A stretch of DNA of 64,000 nucleotides from Planctomycetota bacterium (GTDB lineage: Bacteria; Planctomycetota; Planctomycetia; Gemmatales; HRBIN36): positions 40,012-104,011 of the forward strand of contig JACTMY010000017.1 of assembly GCA_014584395.1 (NCBI GenBank). Reading direction: 5' to 3'. The notes beneath the pieces are model-generated. The model was not told the origin of the DNA, made no database searches, and saw only the letters and a list, made by a program, of their open reading frames with translations. Below are positions 2,370 to 64,000 of this stretch, in pieces. Position numbers and translations under genes: made by a program. Position 1 is the stretch's first letter. The number at the start of each line of letters is the position of its first letter.

Positions 2370-2511
2370 TGTTCCTTCGGGGCTTCGGTCTCAAGCCATC
2401 GACAGGCCGCGGTTTGCTTGTCCTCATCCCCCTTCGGACGACAAGTTTCCTCGCTCCTGCCAGGCTAGCGAAGCCCCTTCTTCACCCTGCACCGGTGAAA
2501 GGAAGGTGGTC

Positions 2512-3345
2512 ATGGCAACCTGGCTGACTGTTTCTTTCGCTTCTCCCTCAAAACCTCCGAGACGCGCCGGTTTCTCCCTCGTGGAGTTGCTCGTCGTCTT
2601 CGCCATCATCACGGTACTGATCGGGCTGATGTTGCCCGCCATCCAGCGGGTGCGCGGCACCGTCGATGCCCTGATCTGCCAGCATCGCCTGCGGCAGATC
2701 GGACTGGCCTGCCACCATTACCACCTGGACATGGGGACTTTTCCGCCGGGCGGCATCGAATGGCGGCCCCCGGGGAACACCACGCGCCGGCAGCTTTCCT
2801 GGTGCGTCTTCATTCTCCCTTACCTCGAACAGGACCTCGTTTACCGCCAGTTGGACCTCAATCTGCCCTTTGACCATCCGGTCAACGCCCCGGCGGCGGC
2901 GACGGTGTTGTCGGTCTTTATCTGCCCCTCGTCTCGCCGCATGGAAAAATTGGTCCAGGGGCGCGGGGCTTGCGACTACGGCGGCATCTACGGCGAACGC
3001 ATCACCTCGCCCAACAACCCGCCCAAGGGGATGATGCTCTACGATCAGCCCGTGCGCATCGCCGAGGTGACGGATGGCCTGCTGACAACGCTGATGATTT
3101 CAGAAGACAGCGGCTGGAAAGATGGACAGTGGATCAACGGGCTGAACCTTTTTGACCAGGCCTATCCCATCAACCGCGCTCCCCCCTTCGAGAACGACAT
3201 TCGCAGCGACCATCCCGGCGGCGCGCATGGACTGTTCGCGGATGGGTCGGTCCGCTTCCTGCATCAAAACATGGCCTTGCCGGTGCTGGCGGCGATTTGC
3301 ACCCGCGCTCAGGGCGAGCCGATTTCTGTCGATGATCTCGATTGA
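2512..3345 (+). CDS. prepilin-type N-terminal cleavage/methylation domain + DUF1559, H-X9-DG protein
   Basis: The leader is ...RRAG/FSLVELLVVFAIITVLIGLMLPAIQ and the C-terminal motif is HPGGAHGLFADGSVRFL (H-X9-DG). ATG 2512 lies 6 nt after GAAAGGAAGG. The track start at 2506 is a GTG inside the SD. Confidence 0.85.
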   Translation: MATWLTVSFASPSKPPRRAGFSLVELLVVFAIITVLIGLMLPAIQRVRGTVDALICQHRLRQIGLACHHYHLDMGTFPPGGIEWRPPGNTTRRQLSWCVFILPYLEQDLVYRQLDLNLPFDHPVNAPAAATVLSVFICPSSRRMEKLVQGRGACDYGGIYGERITSPNNPPKGMMLYDQPVRIAEVTDGLLTTLMISEDSGWKDGQWINGLNLFDQAYPINRAPPFENDIRSDHPGGAHGLFADGSVRFLHQNMALPVLAAICTRAQGEPISVDDLD

Positions 3346-50026: not shown

Positions 50027-50569
50027 ATGACCGAGCCCATGAACGAGTACTCAGCGTCCGCTCCGCCGCCGATGTGGGTCAAGGTTTTGAAGCAGGTCAT
50101 GTATTGGGCGCTCTTCGCGCTTGTGCTGGCCGCCCTGGTTCGGTATGGCTTCGTCGTCTATCAGCGTTCGGAAATGACCAGTCAGTTGATGGATAAAGGC
50201 AGTCAGGCGTATGATGCTTGGAAGAAAGCCTTGGCGAGCAAGGACCCTGCCGCCATCCATCGTCTCTGTTCACCCGATTATCAGGCGCGGATCAGCCCGG
50301 AAGGGTGGGCCGCGTTGCTGGAAAAGCATCCCGTATTGACCGAGCAACTGATCATGCAATCCTTCACTTATCGTTCGGATGGAACTTTCCTTTGGAAGAC
50401 CTTTTTGGGGCTGCGCGATGAGATGGCTTCGCCAAAAATGACTTATGTCGTCCATACCGCAAAGGATACCGAACGCAAGCAGCCCATCGTCTTCGTTTTC
50501 ATTCTCGATGAAGGCCAGGTCAAGGTCCGCGAGGTGAGAATCATCGATCAACCTTTGGAGATGCCTTGA
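50027..50569 (+). CDS. membrane-anchored hypothetical protein
   Basis: One TM (VMYWALFALVLAALVRYGFVV) plus a domain of about 120 aa. It is followed after 3 nt by the deacetylase gene. Confidence 0.55.
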   Translation: MTEPMNEYSASAPPPMWVKVLKQVMYWALFALVLAALVRYGFVVYQRSEMTSQLMDKGSQAYDAWKKALASKDPAAIHRLCSPDYQARISPEGWAALLEKHPVLTEQLIMQSFTYRSDGTFLWKTFLGLRDEMASPKMTYVVHTAKDTERKQPIVFVFILDEGQVKVREVRIIDQPLEMP

Positions 50570-50572
50570 TCC

Positions 50573-51487
50573 ATGCCGGCCGCGGCGCTTCCAGTCTTTG
50601 CCTGCGACGCCTTCTCGTTTCCTCTCCCGGAGGGCCATCGCTTTCCGTTGGCAAAGTTTCGCCGGCTCCGAGAGAAGCTGATCGCTGACGGCGTCGTGGC
50701 GGGCCGGGACGTTCACTTGCCCTCTCCCGTCCAGCGGGAGCAGCTCGAACTGGCTCATGACGCGGATTACGTGCAGCGCATGCTCCAAGGACAACTGTCC
50801 GCGGCGGAATGCCGCCGGTTGGGCTTCCCCTGGTCTGCCGCCTTGGTGGAGCGGGCGCTGCGCTCCGCGGGGGGCACCTTGGCCGCGGCCCGCGCGGCCC
50901 TGGAGCGGGGCGTGGGGATCACCTTGGCGGGCGGTACGCACCACGCCGGCGTTCGGCACGGCGAAGGCTTTTGCCTGTTTAACGACAGCATCATTGCCGC
51001 GCGGGTTTTGCAAAGAGAAGGCTGCGTTCGGCGGGTGGTCGTCCTCGATGGCGACGTTCATCAAGGCAACGGCACGGCCGAGATCGCCGACGGGGATGAT
51101 GCCATCTTCACCTTTTCCTTGCATGGCGCCCGCAACTTTCCCTTGCGAAAGCATCCCAGCGATCTGGACATCGCCCTGCCCGATGGCACGGAGGATGAGG
51201 CGTTCCTGCACGCTTGGAGGCATGGGGTGATCGAAGCGCTGGACCGCTCGCGCGCGGAGATGGCCATCTATCTGGCCGGGGCGGACCCCTATCGCGGCGA
51301 CCGCCTGGGCCGGCTCGCCGTTTCTCCCGAGGGATTGCTGCAGCGCGACCGCTTCGCTCTGGCCGCTTGCCATCAAAGGGGGATTCCCGTCGTCGTTACG
51401 ATGGCCGGGGGATATGCCAGGAACATCGACGAAACCGTCGCCATTCAGGCCAGAACGGTCCAAGAAGCGTTGCGCTATGGGAGATGA
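50573..51487 (+). CDS. histone deacetylase-family (arginase/deacetylase fold) protein
   Basis: LAGGTHHAG...GFCLFND...VLDGDVHQGNG...GADPY. Confidence 0.85.
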   Translation: MPAAALPVFACDAFSFPLPEGHRFPLAKFRRLREKLIADGVVAGRDVHLPSPVQREQLELAHDADYVQRMLQGQLSAAECRRLGFPWSAALVERALRSAGGTLAAARAALERGVGITLAGGTHHAGVRHGEGFCLFNDSIIAARVLQREGCVRRVVVLDGDVHQGNGTAEIADGDDAIFTFSLHGARNFPLRKHPSDLDIALPDGTEDEAFLHAWRHGVIEALDRSRAEMAIYLAGADPYRGDRLGRLAVSPEGLLQRDRFALAACHQRGIPVVVTMAGGYARNIDETVAIQARTVQEALRYGR

Positions 51488-51538
51488 ACGGGAAGCGGGC
51501 ATGGAGCGAACCGATGCCCGGTTCAGCCGCGGGCGGAC

Positions 51539-55374: not shown

Positions 55375-56310
55375 TCAATCCTCGGGCAACTGGACGGTTT
55401 CGCCGCCGTTGCGGGTGCACAAGGCCCGCATGATGCGATCCGAGACGGAGTATTTGAAGAAATGAACGGAGCCATCCACCATGAGAAAATGGGCCCCGCC
55501 AGGGTGCATGCTCCAGTAGTGGCCGCGGTCGCAGGGCCGGTCGATGCGGCCGGGACCCAGGCAGGGCGTGGGGAATTGTTCGCAGGGATCACGCGGAACT
55601 TCAATGCCCACGTCATAGCGCGGCGGACAATGAACGGTATTCTCATTGTTCCTCACGACGGGAAGAGGTTGATAAATGGTGTACCATTTCCCGGAGCGGT
55701 AATCGTCTGGCGGCGGTCGTTCGCCGGCCATGATGGTCGTGGAATGGCCATCGATCACGTCGCTGAAACGGATCTCGTTGAAATCGAGAAAGATGCCATT
55801 GTACAGGGAGCCAGCATTCCCAACATAGGACATCACGGCAATCTTTTGCCCCGACGGCGTGAAGACCGGGTTTAATAGTCGGCGATCCAAGGGACATACA
55901 AAGAGCGGGATGACCGTGGCATTGCCCACATGCGGCGGATCGATCCACGTTTCCACGTTGAGTTCAAACGCTTGCTGCGTCTGACTCCATAAGGCGTTCT
56001 GTTCGATGTAAGGCAGCAATTGCGCAGGCCAGGCCAGCCGATCCTCGGCGTATTTCCAAAAGTTTGTGACATAATCAGGATTCCGTTTGGCATATTGCGA
56101 TGGGCCGGGGAAGCGCTGATGGTTGGCATGAAAGTGATGAATGGCCACGCCGATTTGCCGCAGATTGGATTGGCATTGAACCGCGGCGGCCGAGGCGCGT
56201 ATCCGTTGAATGGCAGGCATCAAGAGGCCGATGAGAAGCGAGATGATGCCCAGGCAGACCAACAGTTCGACAAGGGTAAATGCAGAGCGATGGTGATCAT
56301 GTGCTTTCAT
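55375..56310 (-). CDS. prepilin-type N-terminal cleavage/methylation domain + DUF1559, H-X9-DG protein
   Basis: Leader HHRSA/FTLVELLVCLGIISLLIGLLMPAIQ and C-terminal HPGGAHFLMVDGSVHFF. Confidence 0.9.
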   Translation of the reverse strand: MKAHDHHRSAFTLVELLVCLGIISLLIGLLMPAIQRIRASAAAVQCQSNLRQIGVAIHHFHANHQRFPGPSQYAKRNPDYVTNFWKYAEDRLAWPAQLLPYIEQNALWSQTQQAFELNVETWIDPPHVGNATVIPLFVCPLDRRLLNPVFTPSGQKIAVMSYVGNAGSLYNGIFLDFNEIRFSDVIDGHSTTIMAGERPPPDDYRSGKWYTIYQPLPVVRNNENTVHCPPRYDVGIEVPRDPCEQFPTPCLGPGRIDRPCDRGHYWSMHPGGAHFLMVDGSVHFFKYSVSDRIMRALCTRNGGETVQLPED

Positions 56311-56351: not shown

Positions 56352-57413
56352 TTATGAAGCTTCCAGCCGCTCCCGCCGCTTTTGCCAAAGCCAATAGCCA
56401 ACCGCCAGGAGAAGGAGAGCCAGGCCGCCCAGGATAAACCACAGCCCGCCGCTGCCCGGCTCCGCGCGGGTCGGCCCCAACAAGCTGCGCGGATCGTTGG
56501 TGGCATAAGGCAACTCGGCCTGATTCATGGTGACTTCTTGACCATCTTTCTTGAGCGGAGCCAATGAACCATCATCGAGGACTTTCCAAATCTTTTTGTT
56601 GACTTCATCGAACACTTGAGCGCCTGGAGGAAAAGTCAATTGAAACAGTGAATCGGGTAAATCGGGATTAATCTGATAGTTCTCGAAAGTCATGACCCCA
56701 TGGGCCTTTTGCCTGATCTCATTGGATGTTTTCATATAAGCACGGGAATGGAGACTGATCTTCTTGGGTAAAAATAATCCTGGCAATGGTTCAACATACT
56801 CATCAACGGTTTCTTCTCCATGAATGCTCGCATATGGCTCATCGCTGATCGTATCCTTTATTTTTTTATATATGACACCATTTTTGTCAACATCATACCA
56901 TAATTCATACTTATTTATAGTGGACGCTATCTCTGTAGCATACTGATATTTTACGACAATATAATCTTTCTCTTTCTCTCTTATCATTGACGCAGTTGCC
57001 TGCTTGTCATCCAAAATCTCTTTGAGATACTTGCCCTGATTATGATACATGGAAATGATGCCTAAATGGTCTCTTAGGTCAAAGAAGCTAGAAAGTCTAT
57101 TTCCATGATTATAAGATCGAATATAACCTGTTGCAATTTTTCCTTTTGGTGCATCTAGCCGCAATAGTGATTTGTCCGTGATAACGATAACGGAATAGGC
57201 ATCGATAGTAAAATCTTCCATCCTGATCATTTTATCCTTCATCATGAATAGCCCATTTCTGGCGATACCTATTTCTGGATCACTGGAAATAATTTTACAT
57301 GATATATTTGATATTGATGAATGTAATACATCGATCAGTTTGCATAGTCTTTCTTTTTCACTTGAATGAGTGAATGTTGCAATACATAGTAGAAAATAAA
57401 CATGCATGGTCAT
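56352..57413 (-). CDS. hypothetical protein of the low-GC island, C-terminal TM anchor (possible LolA/RseB-like fold)
   Basis: 353 aa, with an AT-rich body that uses A/T-ending codons. The GC-rich 3' end encodes AEPGSGGLWFILGGLALLLLAVGYWLWQKRRER. PDSLFQLTFPPGAQVFD resembles the LolA-like C-terminal strand; the fold call is weak. Confidence 0.7.
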   Translation of the reverse strand: MTMHVYFLLCIATFTHSSEKERLCKLIDVLHSSISNISCKIISSDPEIGIARNGLFMMKDKMIRMEDFTIDAYSVIVITDKSLLRLDAPKGKIATGYIRSYNHGNRLSSFFDLRDHLGIISMYHNQGKYLKEILDDKQATASMIREKEKDYIVVKYQYATEIASTINKYELWYDVDKNGVIYKKIKDTISDEPYASIHGEETVDEYVEPLPGLFLPKKISLHSRAYMKTSNEIRQKAHGVMTFENYQINPDLPDSLFQLTFPPGAQVFDEVNKKIWKVLDDGSLAPLKKDGQEVTMNQAELPYATNDPRSLLGPTRAEPGSGGLWFILGGLALLLLAVGYWLWQKRRERLEAS

Positions 57414-57561
57414 GTCCTTGCTAGTTCATCAAAGACTTTATATACCCAACTGGACTATTATTGGATAAGACGACGCCCTTTTGCCATTGAAGCAGCTTAT
57501 GAAGTCATTTCATGCTGTTCAATAAAAAAGGCAAAAGGGCAATGATCACATTCTAGAAAAC

Positions 57562-57885
57562 CTAATCGCAGCTCCACCTCTGTACATAACAAGTGAAGCC
57601 ATTTATCGTTGAAGTTCCGACGCATGATGTCAGGCTGCCATTTTCGCACCATTCAAATTGCATGTCGCCACAGACAAAATAAGTTGTACCTGATTGAGTT
57701 ACATCACATCCCGTTATTGGCGTACCATCTCCAAGTACTCCAGGAACAACGCCAAGAGTACTACAATTCTTCTGCGTGATACATTTGAAATTTGCCAATC
57801 CCGTTCCAGGTTGCCCCGCGACTCGGCCCAGGCCGAAGACCACCAGCCCCATCCCCAACACCACCAGCAGCAGCACGCGACGCAT
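57562..57885 (-). CDS. small secreted 8-cysteine protein (hypothetical)
   Basis: Signal peptide MRRVLLLVVLGMGLVVFGLGRVAG. The mature part of about 83 aa has 8 Cys. The RBS AAGGAG lies 6 nt before the ATG. Confidence 0.7.
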   Translation of the reverse strand: MRRVLLLVVLGMGLVVFGLGRVAGQPGTGLANFKCITQKNCSTLGVVPGVLGDGTPITGCDVTQSGTTYFVCGDMQFEWCENGSLTSCVGTSTINGFTCYVQRWSCD

Positions 57886-57911
57886 GGGTTTCTCCTTTTC
57901 TCAAGAGGTTC

Positions 57912-57953
57912 ATTTTACCAGGCAGCACAAGGCTACTGTCAAAAAAAAAAAAA
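57912..57953 (-). promoter_or_regulatory. candidate strong sigma70-like promoter with T13 UP-like tract
   Basis: The minus strand reads T13-TTGACA(57942-57937)-19 nt-TGgTAAAAT (-10 at 57917-57912), about 25 nt upstream of the AAGGAG RBS of the Cys-rich gene. Confidence 0.5.
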
Positions 57954-58062
57954 TGCAAGTGAAAAAGGAAAAAAAAACGCTGGCCTAGGTGCTGGATTGA
58001 GAAATGAGCAGAAAAAGTCCAGGAAAGAGGGTTTCCCTTGGGTGAATTGCCCGCCGGCCCGG

Positions 58063-60263: not shown

Positions 60264-60821
60264 ATGAGGCAAATGGTCTACTCCGTGGCCATGAGTTTGG
60301 ACGGCTACATTGCGGGGCCCAGAGGTGAATTCGATTGGATCATCATGGACCCCGAAATCGATTTCGCGGCCCTGTTCAATCGCTTTGACGTGCTGCTGAT
60401 GGGAAGAAAAACCTATGAAGTGGTTCAGGGCATGGGAGGTGGTGGATCATCGAACGTGAAGACACTGGTCGTTTCCCGCACCATGAAGGCCAAGGATCAT
60501 CCCAACGTCGCGATCCTGCACCGCGATTTAGAGAAGAGCCTCCGCCATCTCAAGGAAAGCCCCGGGAAGGATATTTGGCTCTACGGCGGCGGTCAACTCT
60601 TTCGAAAAATGCTTGAGTTGAATCTGGTCGATCGGGTCGAAGTAGCCATTATCCCCGTGCTCCTGGGCCGGGGAATCCCCTTGCTTCCCGCTCCCAGCCT
60701 GCGGGTGAAGCTGCAACTGGCGCAGCATCGCATTTTGAGCAAAACGGGCATCGTGATGCTGGAATATAACGTGTTGGGGCAGAAGAAATCCGCGAGCCGA
60801 CGCAAGGGACGTCGTCGTTGA
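60264..60821 (+). CDS. dihydrofolate reductase-family (RibD C-terminal domain) protein
   Basis: VAMSLDGYIAGPRGEFDWI...DVLLMGRKTYE...IWLYGGGQLF. Confidence 0.8.
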   Translation: MRQMVYSVAMSLDGYIAGPRGEFDWIIMDPEIDFAALFNRFDVLLMGRKTYEVVQGMGGGGSSNVKTLVVSRTMKAKDHPNVAILHRDLEKSLRHLKESPGKDIWLYGGGQLFRKMLELNLVDRVEVAIIPVLLGRGIPLLPAPSLRVKLQLAQHRILSKTGIVMLEYNVLGQKKSASRRKGRRR

Positions 60822-61322: not shown

Positions 61323-64000
61323 ATGCTATCTGTCCGCCGTGTCTTGGCGCTGAGCGCCTTCTTGGCCCTCATCGTCATCTCCTCACCTCTTATGGGAGAT
61401 TCGGGATCCGCCACGGATTCCAAACGGTCGCCACTCAAGGGCGACGCGGTTCATCATGATGCCGGTCAACTGGTGGAAAAGGCCCTGGCGAAAGCGATTG
61501 TCAGCGATGCCTCGTTAACGTATCAGTCGGCCCAAGGCGACACACTGTTCGCCCTCAAGGTCAAGCCCGCCCTGACGGGACAAAACGACCTGCCCAAGGA
61601 TTACGTGATCCTGGTGGATTCCACCGCCAGCCAGGCCGGTGCGCCGTTCATCGTGCAGCGGCAAATGGCGGCCCAGTGGATCAAGCAACTGGGTCCCAAG
61701 GACCGCGTGGCTTTGTGGGAAGTGAACGTCAAGCCCCGCGCATTGACCTCCGGATGGGCTTCCGCCAACGATCCGCAACTCAGCAAGGCCCTGGCCAAGC
61801 TGGATCAGACGACGCCGATGGGCGCCGCCGATTTCAAGTCGGCTTTGTCCCAGGCCGTGTCGAGCTTTGAAGCAACCACGCAGCGGCAACAAGTCGTCAT
61901 TTACCTGGGCGACGGCCAAGGCACGCTCAATCCCTTTACGCCTCAAGAACGCCGCCAGGTCGTGCAGACCATGACCCAGCGCCGCATTCAATTTTTCGCT
62001 GTTCCACTCGGAGCGAAGGTGGACCTCTTGGACATCAGCGCCCTGGCAACGGGCACCGGCGGCGTCATTCTTCGCATAAATCTGACTGAAGCGGCCGACG
62101 TAGCCGTGACGCGCTGCCTGGCCACCGTGCGCCAGCCCGTGCTCTATGTCGACAAAGTCGCCGCCGACGCCAACGTGGCCGAAAGCTATCCGACGCAGTG
62201 GCCGCCGCTGCGCAGCGACGTGCCGACACTGGTCGCGGGCAAGCTGGCCAAGAGCGCGCCGCAACTCAGCTACCAGGTCGAAGGCCAGCTGCTGGGCCGA
62301 GCCGCCTCGATCACCGTCAGCTCTCCCGTGGCTGAGCCGATGATGGAATGTTTCTTCCTGGCCAACGTCGTCAAACAATGGCGCACAGCCGCCGATCAGC
62401 CCGCGCTGATGCAGGCCGACTATGCCCTGGCGTTTTCCTTCAACCAAACCTCCTCGGCCAAGGAAGAAATCATTCTACAAGGCCGGCAGGCGCTGGAATT
62501 CGAAAAGCTGGACGTGGCCAAGCAATTGTTCGAACAGATCGCGGACCTCGATCCGAACGACGCCGAGGCGCAAATGGGCCTGAAGCTCGTTGCTCACCTG
62601 GACAAGGAAAAGAGCAAGGGGCGCTTCAAGCAAACAGACGACAATCTCAAGAAGGAAGACGACCTGCTCCGCCGCACGCAGCAGCGCCAGGATTTGGAAA
62701 AGCAGCGGCTCAAGCTGCTCATGGATGACACGATTCGCCAATCTCGCAAGGAACTGGCCGCGAATCCCGACGAAGCTGTGCGCCGGCTCAAGCTCCTCAG
62801 TGAAGAAGTTCGCAACGACCCCAACCTGGGCGATGAGCTGCGCAATCAAATGCGCCGCGAACTCGAAAGCGAACTGCGCACGGCGCAGGATCGGGCCGAG
62901 AAATTCCTCGCCCAGCAGCAAGACCGTGAACAGCGCCTGGCCCAGGCCAAGGCGATTCTGGATGCGCAGAACGCCCGGGCCGATCAGCAGGCGCGTCTCC
63001 GCGCGGCCTTGCAGCAATTCGAGGGGTTGGTCCAGCAGGCCCGCCTCGAGGAAGCCATGCTGCAAGCGCAAACGGCTTTCCAACTCGCGCCGGAATCCAT
63101 CGTCACCAACGTGGCCGTGCAACAATCGGAACTGGGTTACAACCTCGACGCCAACCTGAAATTGCAACAGGACAAGCGCGTGGCTTACATGGAAACGATG
63201 TACGAACTGGAAGTGTCGCATCGCCCCATTCCGGATAATCCGCCGATGGCCTTCCCGCCGCCGGGCGATCCGTTCTTCAAGACCAAGACCTACACCACGT
63301 GGGGGCAACTCTCCGATAAACGCAAGAAGCGCTGGGGCAACACCCGCTTCAACGAACCCAACGCGGCGCAGTCCGAGGAAATTCAACGCAAGTTGAACCA
63401 GGCCACCGACAAATTCCGCAGCGGCCTGGATGCCATGCCGCTTGAAGAACAGCTGGCCTTCATCGGCAAAGTCTTCGGCGTGCAATTCATCATCGATGAA
63501 CGCTCCTTCAAGGCAGTCGACCCCAACGTCGAAATCGCCAAGAAAGAAGTCTCGCTCCGCCAGATGACCAATGTCAGCGTCAACACCGTTCTCAACAGCA
63601 TCCTGGCTCAACTCGAGCCGACGGCCACTTACGTCATTCGTGGCGACCATGTCGAAATCACCACGCTCGAACGCGTCCTCAAGGACCCAGGCAAACCGAT
63701 CGTGGCCTACCCCATTCTTGAGCTTATTTACATGGGCGGCGTCGCCAGCATGATGCAGGGCGGCATGGGTGGTGGCATGATGGGTATGATGGGCATGGGC
63801 GGCGGTATGATGGGCATGGGCGGCGGCATGATGGGCATGGGCGGCGGTATGATGGGCATGGGCGGCGGCGGCATGATGGGCATGATGGGTATGGGCGGCG
63901 GCATGATGGGTATGGGCGGCGGCATGATGGGTATGGGCGGCGGCATGATGGGCATGGGCGGCGGCATGATGGGCATGGGCGGCGGCATGATGGGTATGGG
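61323..64000 (+). CDS. large secreted vWA-domain protein with coiled-coil, STN/secretin-N-like module and Gly/Met heptad repeats, 3'-partial
   Basis: Not on the ORF track because it has no stop in the window. I translated it by hand from ATG 61323 (GGAG at 61311-61314) to nt 64000 with no stop (892 codons). Signal peptide MLSVRRVLALSAFLALIVISSP. vWA core: DYVILVDSTASQAG, VVIYLGDGQG, IQFFAVPLG...LATGTGGVILRI. STN-like module: LEEQLAFIGKVFGVQFIIDE...VSLRQMTNVSVNTVLNSILAQL..YVIRGDHVEITT. Confidence 0.85.
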   Translation, partial: MLSVRRVLALSAFLALIVISSPLMGDSGSATDSKRSPLKGDAVHHDAGQLVEKALAKAIVSDASLTYQSAQGDTLFALKVKPALTGQNDLPKDYVILVDSTASQAGAPFIVQRQMAAQWIKQLGPKDRVALWEVNVKPRALTSGWASANDPQLSKALAKLDQTTPMGAADFKSALSQAVSSFEATTQRQQVVIYLGDGQGTLNPFTPQERRQVVQTMTQRRIQFFAVPLGAKVDLLDISALATGTGGVILRINLTEAADVAVTRCLATVRQPVLYVDKVAADANVAESYPTQWPPLRSDVPTLVAGKLAKSAPQLSYQVEGQLLGRAASITVSSPVAEPMMECFFLANVVKQWRTAADQPALMQADYALAFSFNQTSSAKEEIILQGRQALEFEKLDVAKQLFEQIADLDPNDAEAQMGLKLVAHLDKEKSKGRFKQTDDNLKKEDDLLRRTQQRQDLEKQRLKLLMDDTIRQSRKELAANPDEAVRRLKLLSEEVRNDPNLGDELRNQMRRELESELRTAQDRAEKFLAQQQDREQRLAQAKAILDAQNARADQQARLRAALQQFEGLVQQARLEEAMLQAQTAFQLAPESIVTNVAVQQSELGYNLDANLKLQQDKRVAYMETMYELEVSHRPIPDNPPMAFPPPGDPFFKTKTYTTWGQLSDKRKKRWGNTRFNEPNAAQSEEIQRKLNQATDKFRSGLDAMPLEEQLAFIGKVFGVQFIIDERSFKAVDPNVEIAKKEVSLRQMTNVSVNTVLNSILAQLEPTATYVIRGDHVEITTLERVLKDPGKPIVAYPILELIYMGGVASMMQGGMGGGMMGMMGMGGGMMGMGGGMMGMGGGMMGMGGGGMMGMMGMGGGMMGMGGGMMGMGGGMMGMGGGMMGMGGGMMGM
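63757..64000 (+). repeat. near-perfect 21-bp tandem repeat (ggcggcggcatgatgggcatg), about 11 copies, running off the window
   Basis: Read directly. It encodes (GGGMMGM)n in the vWA gene frame, and the copies differ mostly at synonymous ggc/ggt positions. Confidence 0.95.

Follow-up and report, generated by a model that had tools for sequence, protein, structure and literature searches.

An AT-rich block with in-frame borders in the first two genes of a planctomycete envelope cassette

In a 64-kb stretch of DNA from a Planctomycetota bacterium (assembly GCA_014584395.1, contig JACTMY010000017.1, positions 40,012 to 104,011; the whole stretch is referred to as the window), we examined a block of AT-rich DNA that lies across two neighbouring genes of the minus strand. 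The first of these genes encodes p107, a small Cys-rich protein, and the second encodes p353, in which an NH2-terminal signal peptide is followed by a LolA-like half-barrel, a disordered linker, a COOH-terminal transmembrane (TM) helix and a basic tail. Directly downstream of p353, in the same direction and at a separation of about 41–42 bp, lies a bona fide member of the DUF1559/H-X9-DG prepilin-like family, which is outside the AT-rich block. This gene contains a prepilin N-methylation motif and an H-X9-DG COOH-terminus and passes the cut-offs of PF07596 (119.9 versus 23.3 bits), PF07963 (26.2 versus 21.2 bits) and TIGR04294 (39.7 versus 19 bits), which bears out the co-directional pseudopilin gene of the original prediction for this locus. 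The gene upstream of the cassette formed by these genes encodes a GGDEF response regulator. The main parts of the locus are as follows.

57562–57885, minus strand: p107, an open reading frame (ORF) for a predicted secreted protein of 107 amino acids (aa) with eight Cys residues
57814–57885, minus strand: p107 signal peptide, codons 1–24, with a GC content at third codon positions (GC3) of 0.92
56352–57413, minus strand: p353, a LolA-like 353-aa ORF, characterized by HMMER, alignment, AlphaFold2 (AF2) and Foldseek
56352–56534, minus strand: host-like tail of p353, codons 294–353, comprising linker and anchor
56535–57813, minus strand: contiguous AT-rich block of 1279 bp with 38.5% GC, delimited by change-point fit, codon GC3 and codon usage
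55375–56310, minus strand: DUF1559 pilin-like gene, the last of the cassette, with a GC3 of 0.67 (PF07596, PF07963, TIGR04294)

The GC content of the window is 61.3%, and that of 300-nt segments along the 64 kb has a mean of 0.613 and a standard deviation of 0.054. The 11 segments with the lowest GC content (0.33–0.43) start at 56501–57501. A two-change-point likelihood fit over 54.5–59.5 kb placed the borders at 56523 and 57793, with 2-log-likelihood support intervals of 56497–56590 and 57787–57814, and yielded 38.2% GC inside and 58.7% outside with a log-likelihood ratio of 81. At the level of codons, the block extends from codon 25 of p107 through the intergenic region, which has 38% GC, to codon 293 of p353, and its borders are in frame, between codons 24 and 25 of p107 and between codons 293 and 294 of p353. 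GC3 falls to 0.35 in codons 25–107 of p107 from its value in the signal peptide, and it rises from 0.36 in codons 1–293 of p353 to 0.87 in codons 294–331, the median for host ORFs being 0.78. The change exceeds 0.5 at either junction and takes place within one codon boundary.

Codon usage changes in the same manner. The share of AGA and AGG among Arg codons is 72% in the block, 0% in the ends and 1% in genes of the host; the corresponding values are 46%, 0% and 2% for CTA and TTA among Leu codons, and 62%, 14% and 8% for GTA and GTT among Val codons. The switch is seen for identical amino acids, with host-like ends (the p107 signal peptide and the p353 linker and anchor) and an alien body, and the drop in GC content is not merely an effect of amino acid bias, in agreement with the original prediction. 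GC content along the window, the change-point fit and the GC3 steps thus agree on a low-GC island with borders inside two ORFs and confirm that the mosaic is genuine and has sharp limits. The island had been assigned to 56520–58020; the block does lie there, but its proper limits are 56535 and 57813, beyond which follow the GC-rich DNA that encodes the p107 signal peptide (57814–57885) and an intergenic region of 46% GC (57886–58062), a value within the 42–60% of other intergenic regions of the window. Given that p353 has a signal peptide of its own that is AT-rich and lies inside the block, the GC-rich ends are not explained by a tendency of membrane segments to be rich in GC. The contiguity of the block, the GC3 steps at single codons and the alien codon usage indicate that it behaves as a single segment of DNA rather than as a gene-level property.

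Both junctions correspond to boundaries between protein modules, which are also the best-conserved segments: the junction in p107 is at the signal peptidase site, between FGLGRVAG and QPG, and that in p353 is at the end of the folded domain, ahead of the linker and anchor. At the composition of the block, the chance that frames of 293 and 83 codons are left open is 1e-8 and 0.006, respectively, and the two genes must therefore have been maintained over the long term. The block also contains nine sigma-70-like promoter matches (56500–57400, both strands), compared with 3.8 ± 1.9 in shuffled sequences; intragenic matches of this kind are typical of spurious promoters in AT-rich DNA.

Word-index homologue searches with p353 and p107 recovered self clusters only. 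An exhaustive HMMER search with p353 yielded 162 cluster representatives at E ≤ 1e-3, many of which, such as P0017 (2e-57) and P0018 (7e-33), align over a full length of about 350 aa, and a profile search for the family added at least two distant members. The family alignment begins with a signal peptide and a helix with a conserved Cys, contains the motifs EIWFDPxVNYLxRK, PGxFFP and INxPLPxDxFxLxFPPG, and ends with a linker, EP-x5-W, a TM helix and a basic tail, the anchor reading EP-x5-W-TM-WLWQ[KR]RR in other genomes. The AF2 model of p353, obtained with an alignment of 87 sequences, had a predicted local distance difference test score (pLDDT) of 90.2 and a predicted template modelling score (pTM) of 0.80, and it shows an NH2-terminal helix, a long antiparallel sheet, a disordered region at residues 303–314 and a TM helix at 321–350. 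Foldseek matched this model to LolA, LolB and RseB with E values of 4e-6 to 1e-4 and a probability of 1.0, all among the top 19 matches; target template modelling scores were mostly 0.45–0.57, with lower values of 0.27–0.36 for RseB. The model thus assigns p353 to the LolA/LolB/RseB structural superfamily, characterized by an unclosed antiparallel beta-barrel and an NH2-terminal helix.

At the sequence level, no Pfam or NCBIfam model scored above its cut-off for p353 except TIGR01167, a marginal match without the motif (16.3 versus 15.9 bits) that covers residues 321–348 only, corresponding to the TM helix and basic tail. The LolA models TIGR00547 (21.0 versus 112 bits, E = 1.8e-4) and NF000661 (17.9 versus 255 bits) failed, with matches confined to residues 239–270; DUF2092 (PF09865) remained below threshold (13.4 versus 21.2 bits, E = 0.052) and was matched by one of 16 family members; and the family profile found nothing significant among PDB sequences, LolA appearing at E = 0.24. 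The likeness of p353 to LolA, LolB and RseB therefore consists of the predicted fold and a weak sequence echo of the LolA COOH-terminal strand motif at residues 239–270. p353 differs from these proteins in its length of ~350 aa, its extra COOH-terminal subdomain, disordered linker and TM anchor, its location next to pilin-like genes rather than lol genes, and its sequence scores far below the cut-offs. The tail resembles COOH-terminal sorting signals (LPXTG, PEP-CTERM, MYXO-CTERM) in that a short motif, EP-x5-W, precedes a TM helix and a basic cluster, whereas it lacks an LPXTG or PEP signature before the TM helix: it reads ...GPTRAEPGSGGLWFILGG..., and none of the PEP-CTERM models matched at E ≤ 1.

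The nearest relative of p353 is P0017, from a lower-GC contig of a different organism, with 33% identity over the body; paralogues in the same metagenome-assembled genome (MAG) show 25–29% identity. The proportion of Phe, Tyr, Met, Ile, Asn and Lys residues (FYMINK) in p353 is 0.36, the highest and hence most AT-type value among the 87 aligned members, compared with 0.21 for the family median and the host. P0019 and P0017 rank next, and a YWLWQ[KR]RR tail is common to all three. The amino acid composition of p353 points to long evolution under AT pressure.

p107 shows 37–42% identity to small ORFs located directly upstream of P0017 and P0019. All eight Cys residues and a signal peptide motif, FG[LI]G[RK]xxGQP, are invariant in these close homologues, and distant homologues, with 28–29% identity, bring the number of Cys residues kept across all five sequences to six. 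Homologues of p107 are located upstream of LolA-like genes at the loci L090, L092, L108 and L109. Pfam, NCBIfam and PDB gave no match for p107, and its single-sequence structure model, with a pLDDT of 48.7, was unusable.

Comparison of the DNA context of eight relatives revealed a shared gene order. A LolA-like gene is followed by a DUF1573-like gene (about 370–410 aa) and a DUF1559 gene at L089, L090, L091 and L108 and on the P0022 contig, and a gene for 100–121 aa is located directly upstream of the LolA-like gene at L090, L092, L108 and L109 and on the P0166 and P0029 contigs. This comparison shows that p107 and p353 occupy the first two positions of an envelope cassette conserved among planctomycetes, in which genes for a small secreted Cys-rich protein and an anchored protein with a LolA fold are followed usually by a DUF1573 gene and then by a DUF1559 pilin-like gene. 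The cassette of the window is without the DUF1573-like gene between p353 and DUF1559. Its DUF1559 protein shares 47–48% identity with those of the L090 and L091 cassettes, compared with 32% for another DUF1559 protein of the window. The LolA-like gene is the fastest evolving of the cassette, with 22–34% identity against the 47–48% of DUF1559. Genes for sigma factors of the extracytoplasmic function type are present upstream on the L108 and P0029 contigs.

The original prediction had described foreign cargo embedded in native ends for secretion and anchoring. Given that both proteins are full-length family members and that the signal peptide and anchor motifs are common to their relatives, these segments are features of the families and not host parts grafted onto unrelated cargo, and that description is not supported. 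A toxin–immunity or adhesin pair, which had also been suggested, does not agree with the LolA/LolB/RseB fold predicted for p353, and models of defence and toxin proteins gave no match. A related explanation, that a mobile element, prophage remnant, or defence or toxin–immunity island was inserted here, would account for the low GC content and the alien codon usage, and a VapBC-like module is present elsewhere in the window. Both genes, however, belong to a chromosomal cassette that is conserved among planctomycetes. The 64 kb contains no tRNA and no convincing flanking direct or inverted repeats, and neither an integrase nor a transposase is among the precomputed Pfam matches listed for those neighbouring genes that were called, in keeping with the original view that this is not a classical island. 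IMG/VR contained no relatives, phage and plasmid collections yielded no DNA match, PADLOC detected nothing and PHROG gave one weak match (E = 0.038). We consider such an insertion highly improbable, an origin from a phage, plasmid, defence or toxin–immunity system being essentially excluded by the IMG/VR, PADLOC, PHROG and phage and plasmid DNA searches. The VapBC-like pair, which was called by eye, consists of a 105-aa upstream ORF and an apparently split PIN-like toxin (1485–1718 and 1317–1478) and occupies 1317–2032 of the minus strand, the region with the second-lowest GC content of the window (47–51%).

To the window could be added a conspecific set made up of three NCBI MAG assemblies (prefixes JAANMW, JAANMX and JAANMY) together with Logan assemblies that stem from no fewer than 12 runs. 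The block is present in all 16 of these assemblies, with identical junctions and gene order and with 99.2–99.7% identity to the window. An artefact of assembly or binning that gave rise to a chimeric contig might be suspected for a metagenome-assembled source. The occurrence of the same junctions, with frames kept, in 16 independent assemblies indicates that the block is real; a chimeric contig is refuted in practice, and we assign this explanation a probability close to nil.

Polymorphism among the 16 loci differed between the block genes and their neighbours. p107 and p353 together contain eight nonsynonymous, one nonsense and one synonymous polymorphism, whereas six flanking genes (sdhB, sdhA, sdhC, DUF1559, GGDEF and AP_endonuc_2) contain 12 nonsynonymous and 35 synonymous polymorphisms (9:1 versus 12:35, p = 2.5e-4 by Fisher's exact test). 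The ratio of nonsynonymous to synonymous polymorphism (pN/pS) is ~2.5 for the block genes and 0.11 for the flanks, and the excess indicates that present selection on the block genes is relaxed or diversifying. The minus-strand frames 50270–51502, 61515–62447 and 62475–63650, which are shadow frames of plus-strand genes, were excluded from these counts. The nonsense allele of p353, K184* (AAA to TAA, nt 56864), is found in four assemblies (runs ERR3169469-74) and divides the ORF into ORFs of 181 and 127 aa; I63M and D150N of p353 and Y69N of p107 are found on the same haplotype. Synonymous diversity (pS) is lower in the block than in the flanks (0.0033 versus 0.0228, Poisson p = 0.007). A recent sweep could underlie this difference, on which we do not rely given the small counts and the lower mutability to be expected of AT-rich third positions.

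Two further features of the polymorphism data are recorded here. A RibD_C-like gene (60264–60821, plus strand) contains six nonsynonymous and four synonymous changes, a ratio above that of its neighbours. Six single-nucleotide polymorphisms, mostly synonymous, distinguish the window from the two other haplotype groups in the 3' portion of the DUF1559 gene (55390–55768), compared with one such site in the AT-rich block; this cluster may reflect a recombination tract or a different depth of coalescence.

At every other locus for which composition could be measured, a shift towards AT is likewise seen in the first two genes of the cassette, although it is milder than in the window, as the following values show.

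L088/L091 (same MAG): GC3 of 0.46 and 0.52 for the two genes, 0.60–0.64 for DUF1573 and DUF1559, and 0.79 for the next gene
L108: GC3 of 0.72 and 0.68 for the two genes, and 0.86–0.91 for all neighbours, including the DUF1573-like and DUF1559 genes
L089: GC3 of 0.44 for the LolA-like gene only, and 0.55–0.61 for the flanks
L087 (solo paralogue): GC content of 0.50, and about 0.58 for the flanks

The MAGs of the conspecific set contain at least two LolA-like paralogues, L088 and L087. L088 (JAANMY010000059.1) is 99.8% identical to L091 and represents the complete P0019 cassette, with genes for 113 aa, 358 aa, a 380-aa DUF1573-like protein and a 307-aa DUF1559 protein followed by a DUF1501 gene of normal GC content, and L087 (JAANMX010000110.1) is a solo LolA-like copy. 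Run SRR32675155 holds both the window-type locus and the P0019 locus. At L088/L091 the GC trough begins ~150 nt upstream of the small gene and not within its signal peptide, which has a GC3 of 0.52, so that the family does not constrain its signal peptides to be host-like. The original prediction had held that close relatives with the same genes at the same composition would speak against it, and this is in part what we found, in that the same-MAG paralogue and other genomes are AT-shifted in the same two genes.

These observations lend themselves to an explanation without transfer, in which a fast-evolving, weakly expressed or hypervariable module drifts in situ to an AT equilibrium. Such a module would escape the force that maintains GC content, whether codon-usage selection or GC-biased gene conversion, while the conserved ends continue to recombine and stay rich in GC. 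In line with this explanation, an AT trough lies on the same two genes in five loci with backgrounds of ~50% to ~72% GC, the downstream DUF1573-like and DUF1559 genes of L108 are fully host-like, and the LolA-like gene is the one that diverges fastest. The high pN/pS of the block genes and the segregation of K184* in the population also fit, as does the grouping of the three most AT-type members of the family in a single subclade, marked by the YWLWQ[KR]RR tail, with two of them in the same MAG. A GC3 change of more than 0.5 at one codon boundary is, however, hard to achieve by drift. The signal peptide of the paralogue in the same genome is unprotected, and a host-like signal peptide is seen at the window locus only. 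A GC3 of 0.36 with 72% AGA and AGG would moreover require near-saturating synonymous change in frames that have nevertheless stayed open, and GC-biased gene conversion has to be assumed for this lineage. Drift in situ would account for the recurrence across loci and is the leading alternative to the replacement preferred below, but we regard it as rather doubtful.

The presence of paralogues also bears on a scenario in which the cassette was AT-rich throughout on arrival and its ends subsequently underwent conversion from GC-rich paralogues of the same genome. At least two LolA-like paralogues are available in the MAGs, and the GC3 of the cassette DUF1559 gene is slightly low (0.67, against the host median). 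Comparison with one paralogue showed, however, that codons for identical residues match in only 10 of 26 cases for the tail and 2 of 14 for the signal peptide, and blastn of the window ends against the known same-MAG paralogue gave no match. Conversion of the ends is accordingly improbable.

We favour an in-frame recombinational replacement, in which the central part of the two-gene module was exchanged for a divergent AT-rich allele, and put its probability at roughly 50%. A resident, host-adapted copy of the cassette would have been the starting point; its central 1.28 kb, comprising mature p107, the intergenic region and the signal peptide and folded domain of p353, would have given way, with the reading frame kept, to a divergent allele of this module that was rich in AT; and the resulting module would then have become fixed in the species, to be under relaxed or diversifying selection now. 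That the block is contiguous, includes the intergenic region and the p353 signal peptide, and ends at module boundaries favours a single replacement. Recombination had been among the possibilities originally raised, and it is the best single explanation for the sharp borders. Compositional islands that are bordered in frame inside genes mark mosaic genes built by recombination, usually at loci under diversifying selection. Mosaic pbp genes, pilin loci, and O-antigen and capsule loci are low in GC or mosaic and are replaced by recombination in conserved flanks. The window locus resembles such variable surface loci in its sharp in-frame junctions at conserved segments, exported or surface-associated products, AT richness and nonsynonymous excess. 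It differs from them in that no alternative alleles or donor were found, in that the block extends over two genes and the DNA between them, and in that the AT shift recurs in distant genomes.

Several points weigh against a replacement. The databases yielded no donor, no alternative allele and no GC-rich orthologue. They contain only three haplotype groups (~99.4% identity), every one with the block, and clustering of the flanking proteins at 90% identity recovered the same three groups only. A scan of genome contigs with SdhA for sister taxa gave best matches of 74% identity that were spread over phyla and included no sister genus, and the nearest SdhC, from a Gemmataceae MAG, is 47% identical. 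Homologous recombination needs nucleotide identity, of which an AT-rich donor and a GC-rich recipient would share hardly any. An AT shift of the two genes is present at all loci with available DNA, including the same-MAG paralogue, L108, L089 and L087, and a pattern that recurs across genomes is more suggestive of a systematic cause than of a single event; the borders at these other loci are blurred and placed elsewhere than in the window.

A broader reading would treat the pair of Cys-rich and LolA-like genes as a hypervariable, persistently AT-rich module that occurs throughout Planctomycetes within a conserved cassette associated with pilin-like genes and is repeatedly exchanged, or kept from recombining, at its conserved signal peptide and anchor junctions, with frequency-dependent selection, by phages or grazers for example, acting on a component of the surface or of fibre assembly. 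We offer this reading as speculation that is more apt to be wrong than right. If it is true, it would provide a first handle on the role of the DUF1559 paralogue family. This family, whose function is unknown, is the largest paralogue family of Planctopirus limnophila, where it has 68 members and two of these are essential (PMC10632474).

With regard to function, p107 is probably exported by the Sec system and disulfide-bonded, its eight Cys residues allowing for four disulfides, although our confidence is low. The model of p353 suggests, again with low confidence, a protein that would be exported and tethered to the cytoplasmic membrane by its COOH-terminal helix, with a LolA-like hydrophobic cavity in the periplasm. 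A role as carrier or chaperone for a hydrophobic partner, such as a lipid, p107 or the NH2-terminal helix of a pilin-like subunit, is plausible, likewise with low confidence, and would aid in building a fibre of the DUF1559 type. This functional reading is based on similarity of fold and on gene neighbourhood only, which counts against it.

The mosaic is located in an undescribed operon tied to DUF1559, the largest protein family of Planctomycetes of unknown function, and neither p107 nor p353 is covered by a Pfam or NCBIfam model. As far as we found, the link of DUF1559 to the Cys-rich and LolA-like pair has no earlier description. What is new here is the cassette itself, together with the AT shift that recurs in its first two genes; a mosaic of recombination type or an AT-rich variable locus is known in kind. 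The association of Cys-rich, LolA-like, DUF1573 and DUF1559 genes and the recurrent shift provide leads on the envelope and fibre biology of planctomycetes, and the shift bears in addition on how GC content is maintained locally.

The noncoding DNA of the locus contains the following further features.

57475–57540, minus strand: stem-loop between p107 and p353, an inverted repeat with 14-nt arms that are 93% complementary
57892–57897, minus strand: ribosome-binding site, AAGGAG, which follows the promoter-like motif
57912–57942, minus strand: promoter-like motif TTGACA-N19-TAAAAT, with TG one base 5' of the second hexamer
57941–57970, minus strand: two T-tracts just 5' of TTGACA, of nine and 13 residues (T9/T13) in the window and T7/T10 and T8/T10 in other strain groups

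A near-consensus promoter had been proposed upstream of p107. The hexamers TTGACA and TAAAAT are indeed present, and the motif with its 19-nt spacer is matched only once in the window and not at all in 100 shuffles; a scan limited to spacers of 16–18 nt misses it because of the spacer length. The hexamers and the 19-nt spacing are constant in 15 conspecific loci, with the spacer base at 57933 different in 12 of the 15. Differences in T-tract length could reflect phase-variable promoter strength or noise in the assembly of homopolymers.

The stem-loop, folded over 171 nt, has a predicted free energy of -54.2 kcal/mol (z = -4.5) and may be an attenuator or an element for mRNA processing or stabilization; Rfam has no match to it or elsewhere in the window. 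L090 and L092 also have hairpins between the corresponding genes, although these are not significant and do not align with that of the window. The intergenic regions of the three close cassettes likewise gave no convincing alignment; each has a hairpin, and only that of the window is significant.

Translation of p353 probably starts at the third codon, an ATG at 57407, which gives 351 aa; this start is favoured by an AAGGA ribosome-binding site 7 nt upstream. Public calls of the ORF amount to 232 aa in the record of the window itself and to 292, 297 and 351 aa elsewhere. The AT-rich block thus also misleads gene callers, probably because gene finders trained on the host distrust its AT-rich 5' part. 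Two more DUF1559-like genes are present in the window, at 81–1073 and 2506–3345 (plus strand), one of them clear (E = 5e-36 to the cassette DUF1559) and the other weak, and neither is accompanied by a LolA-like or Cys-rich partner.

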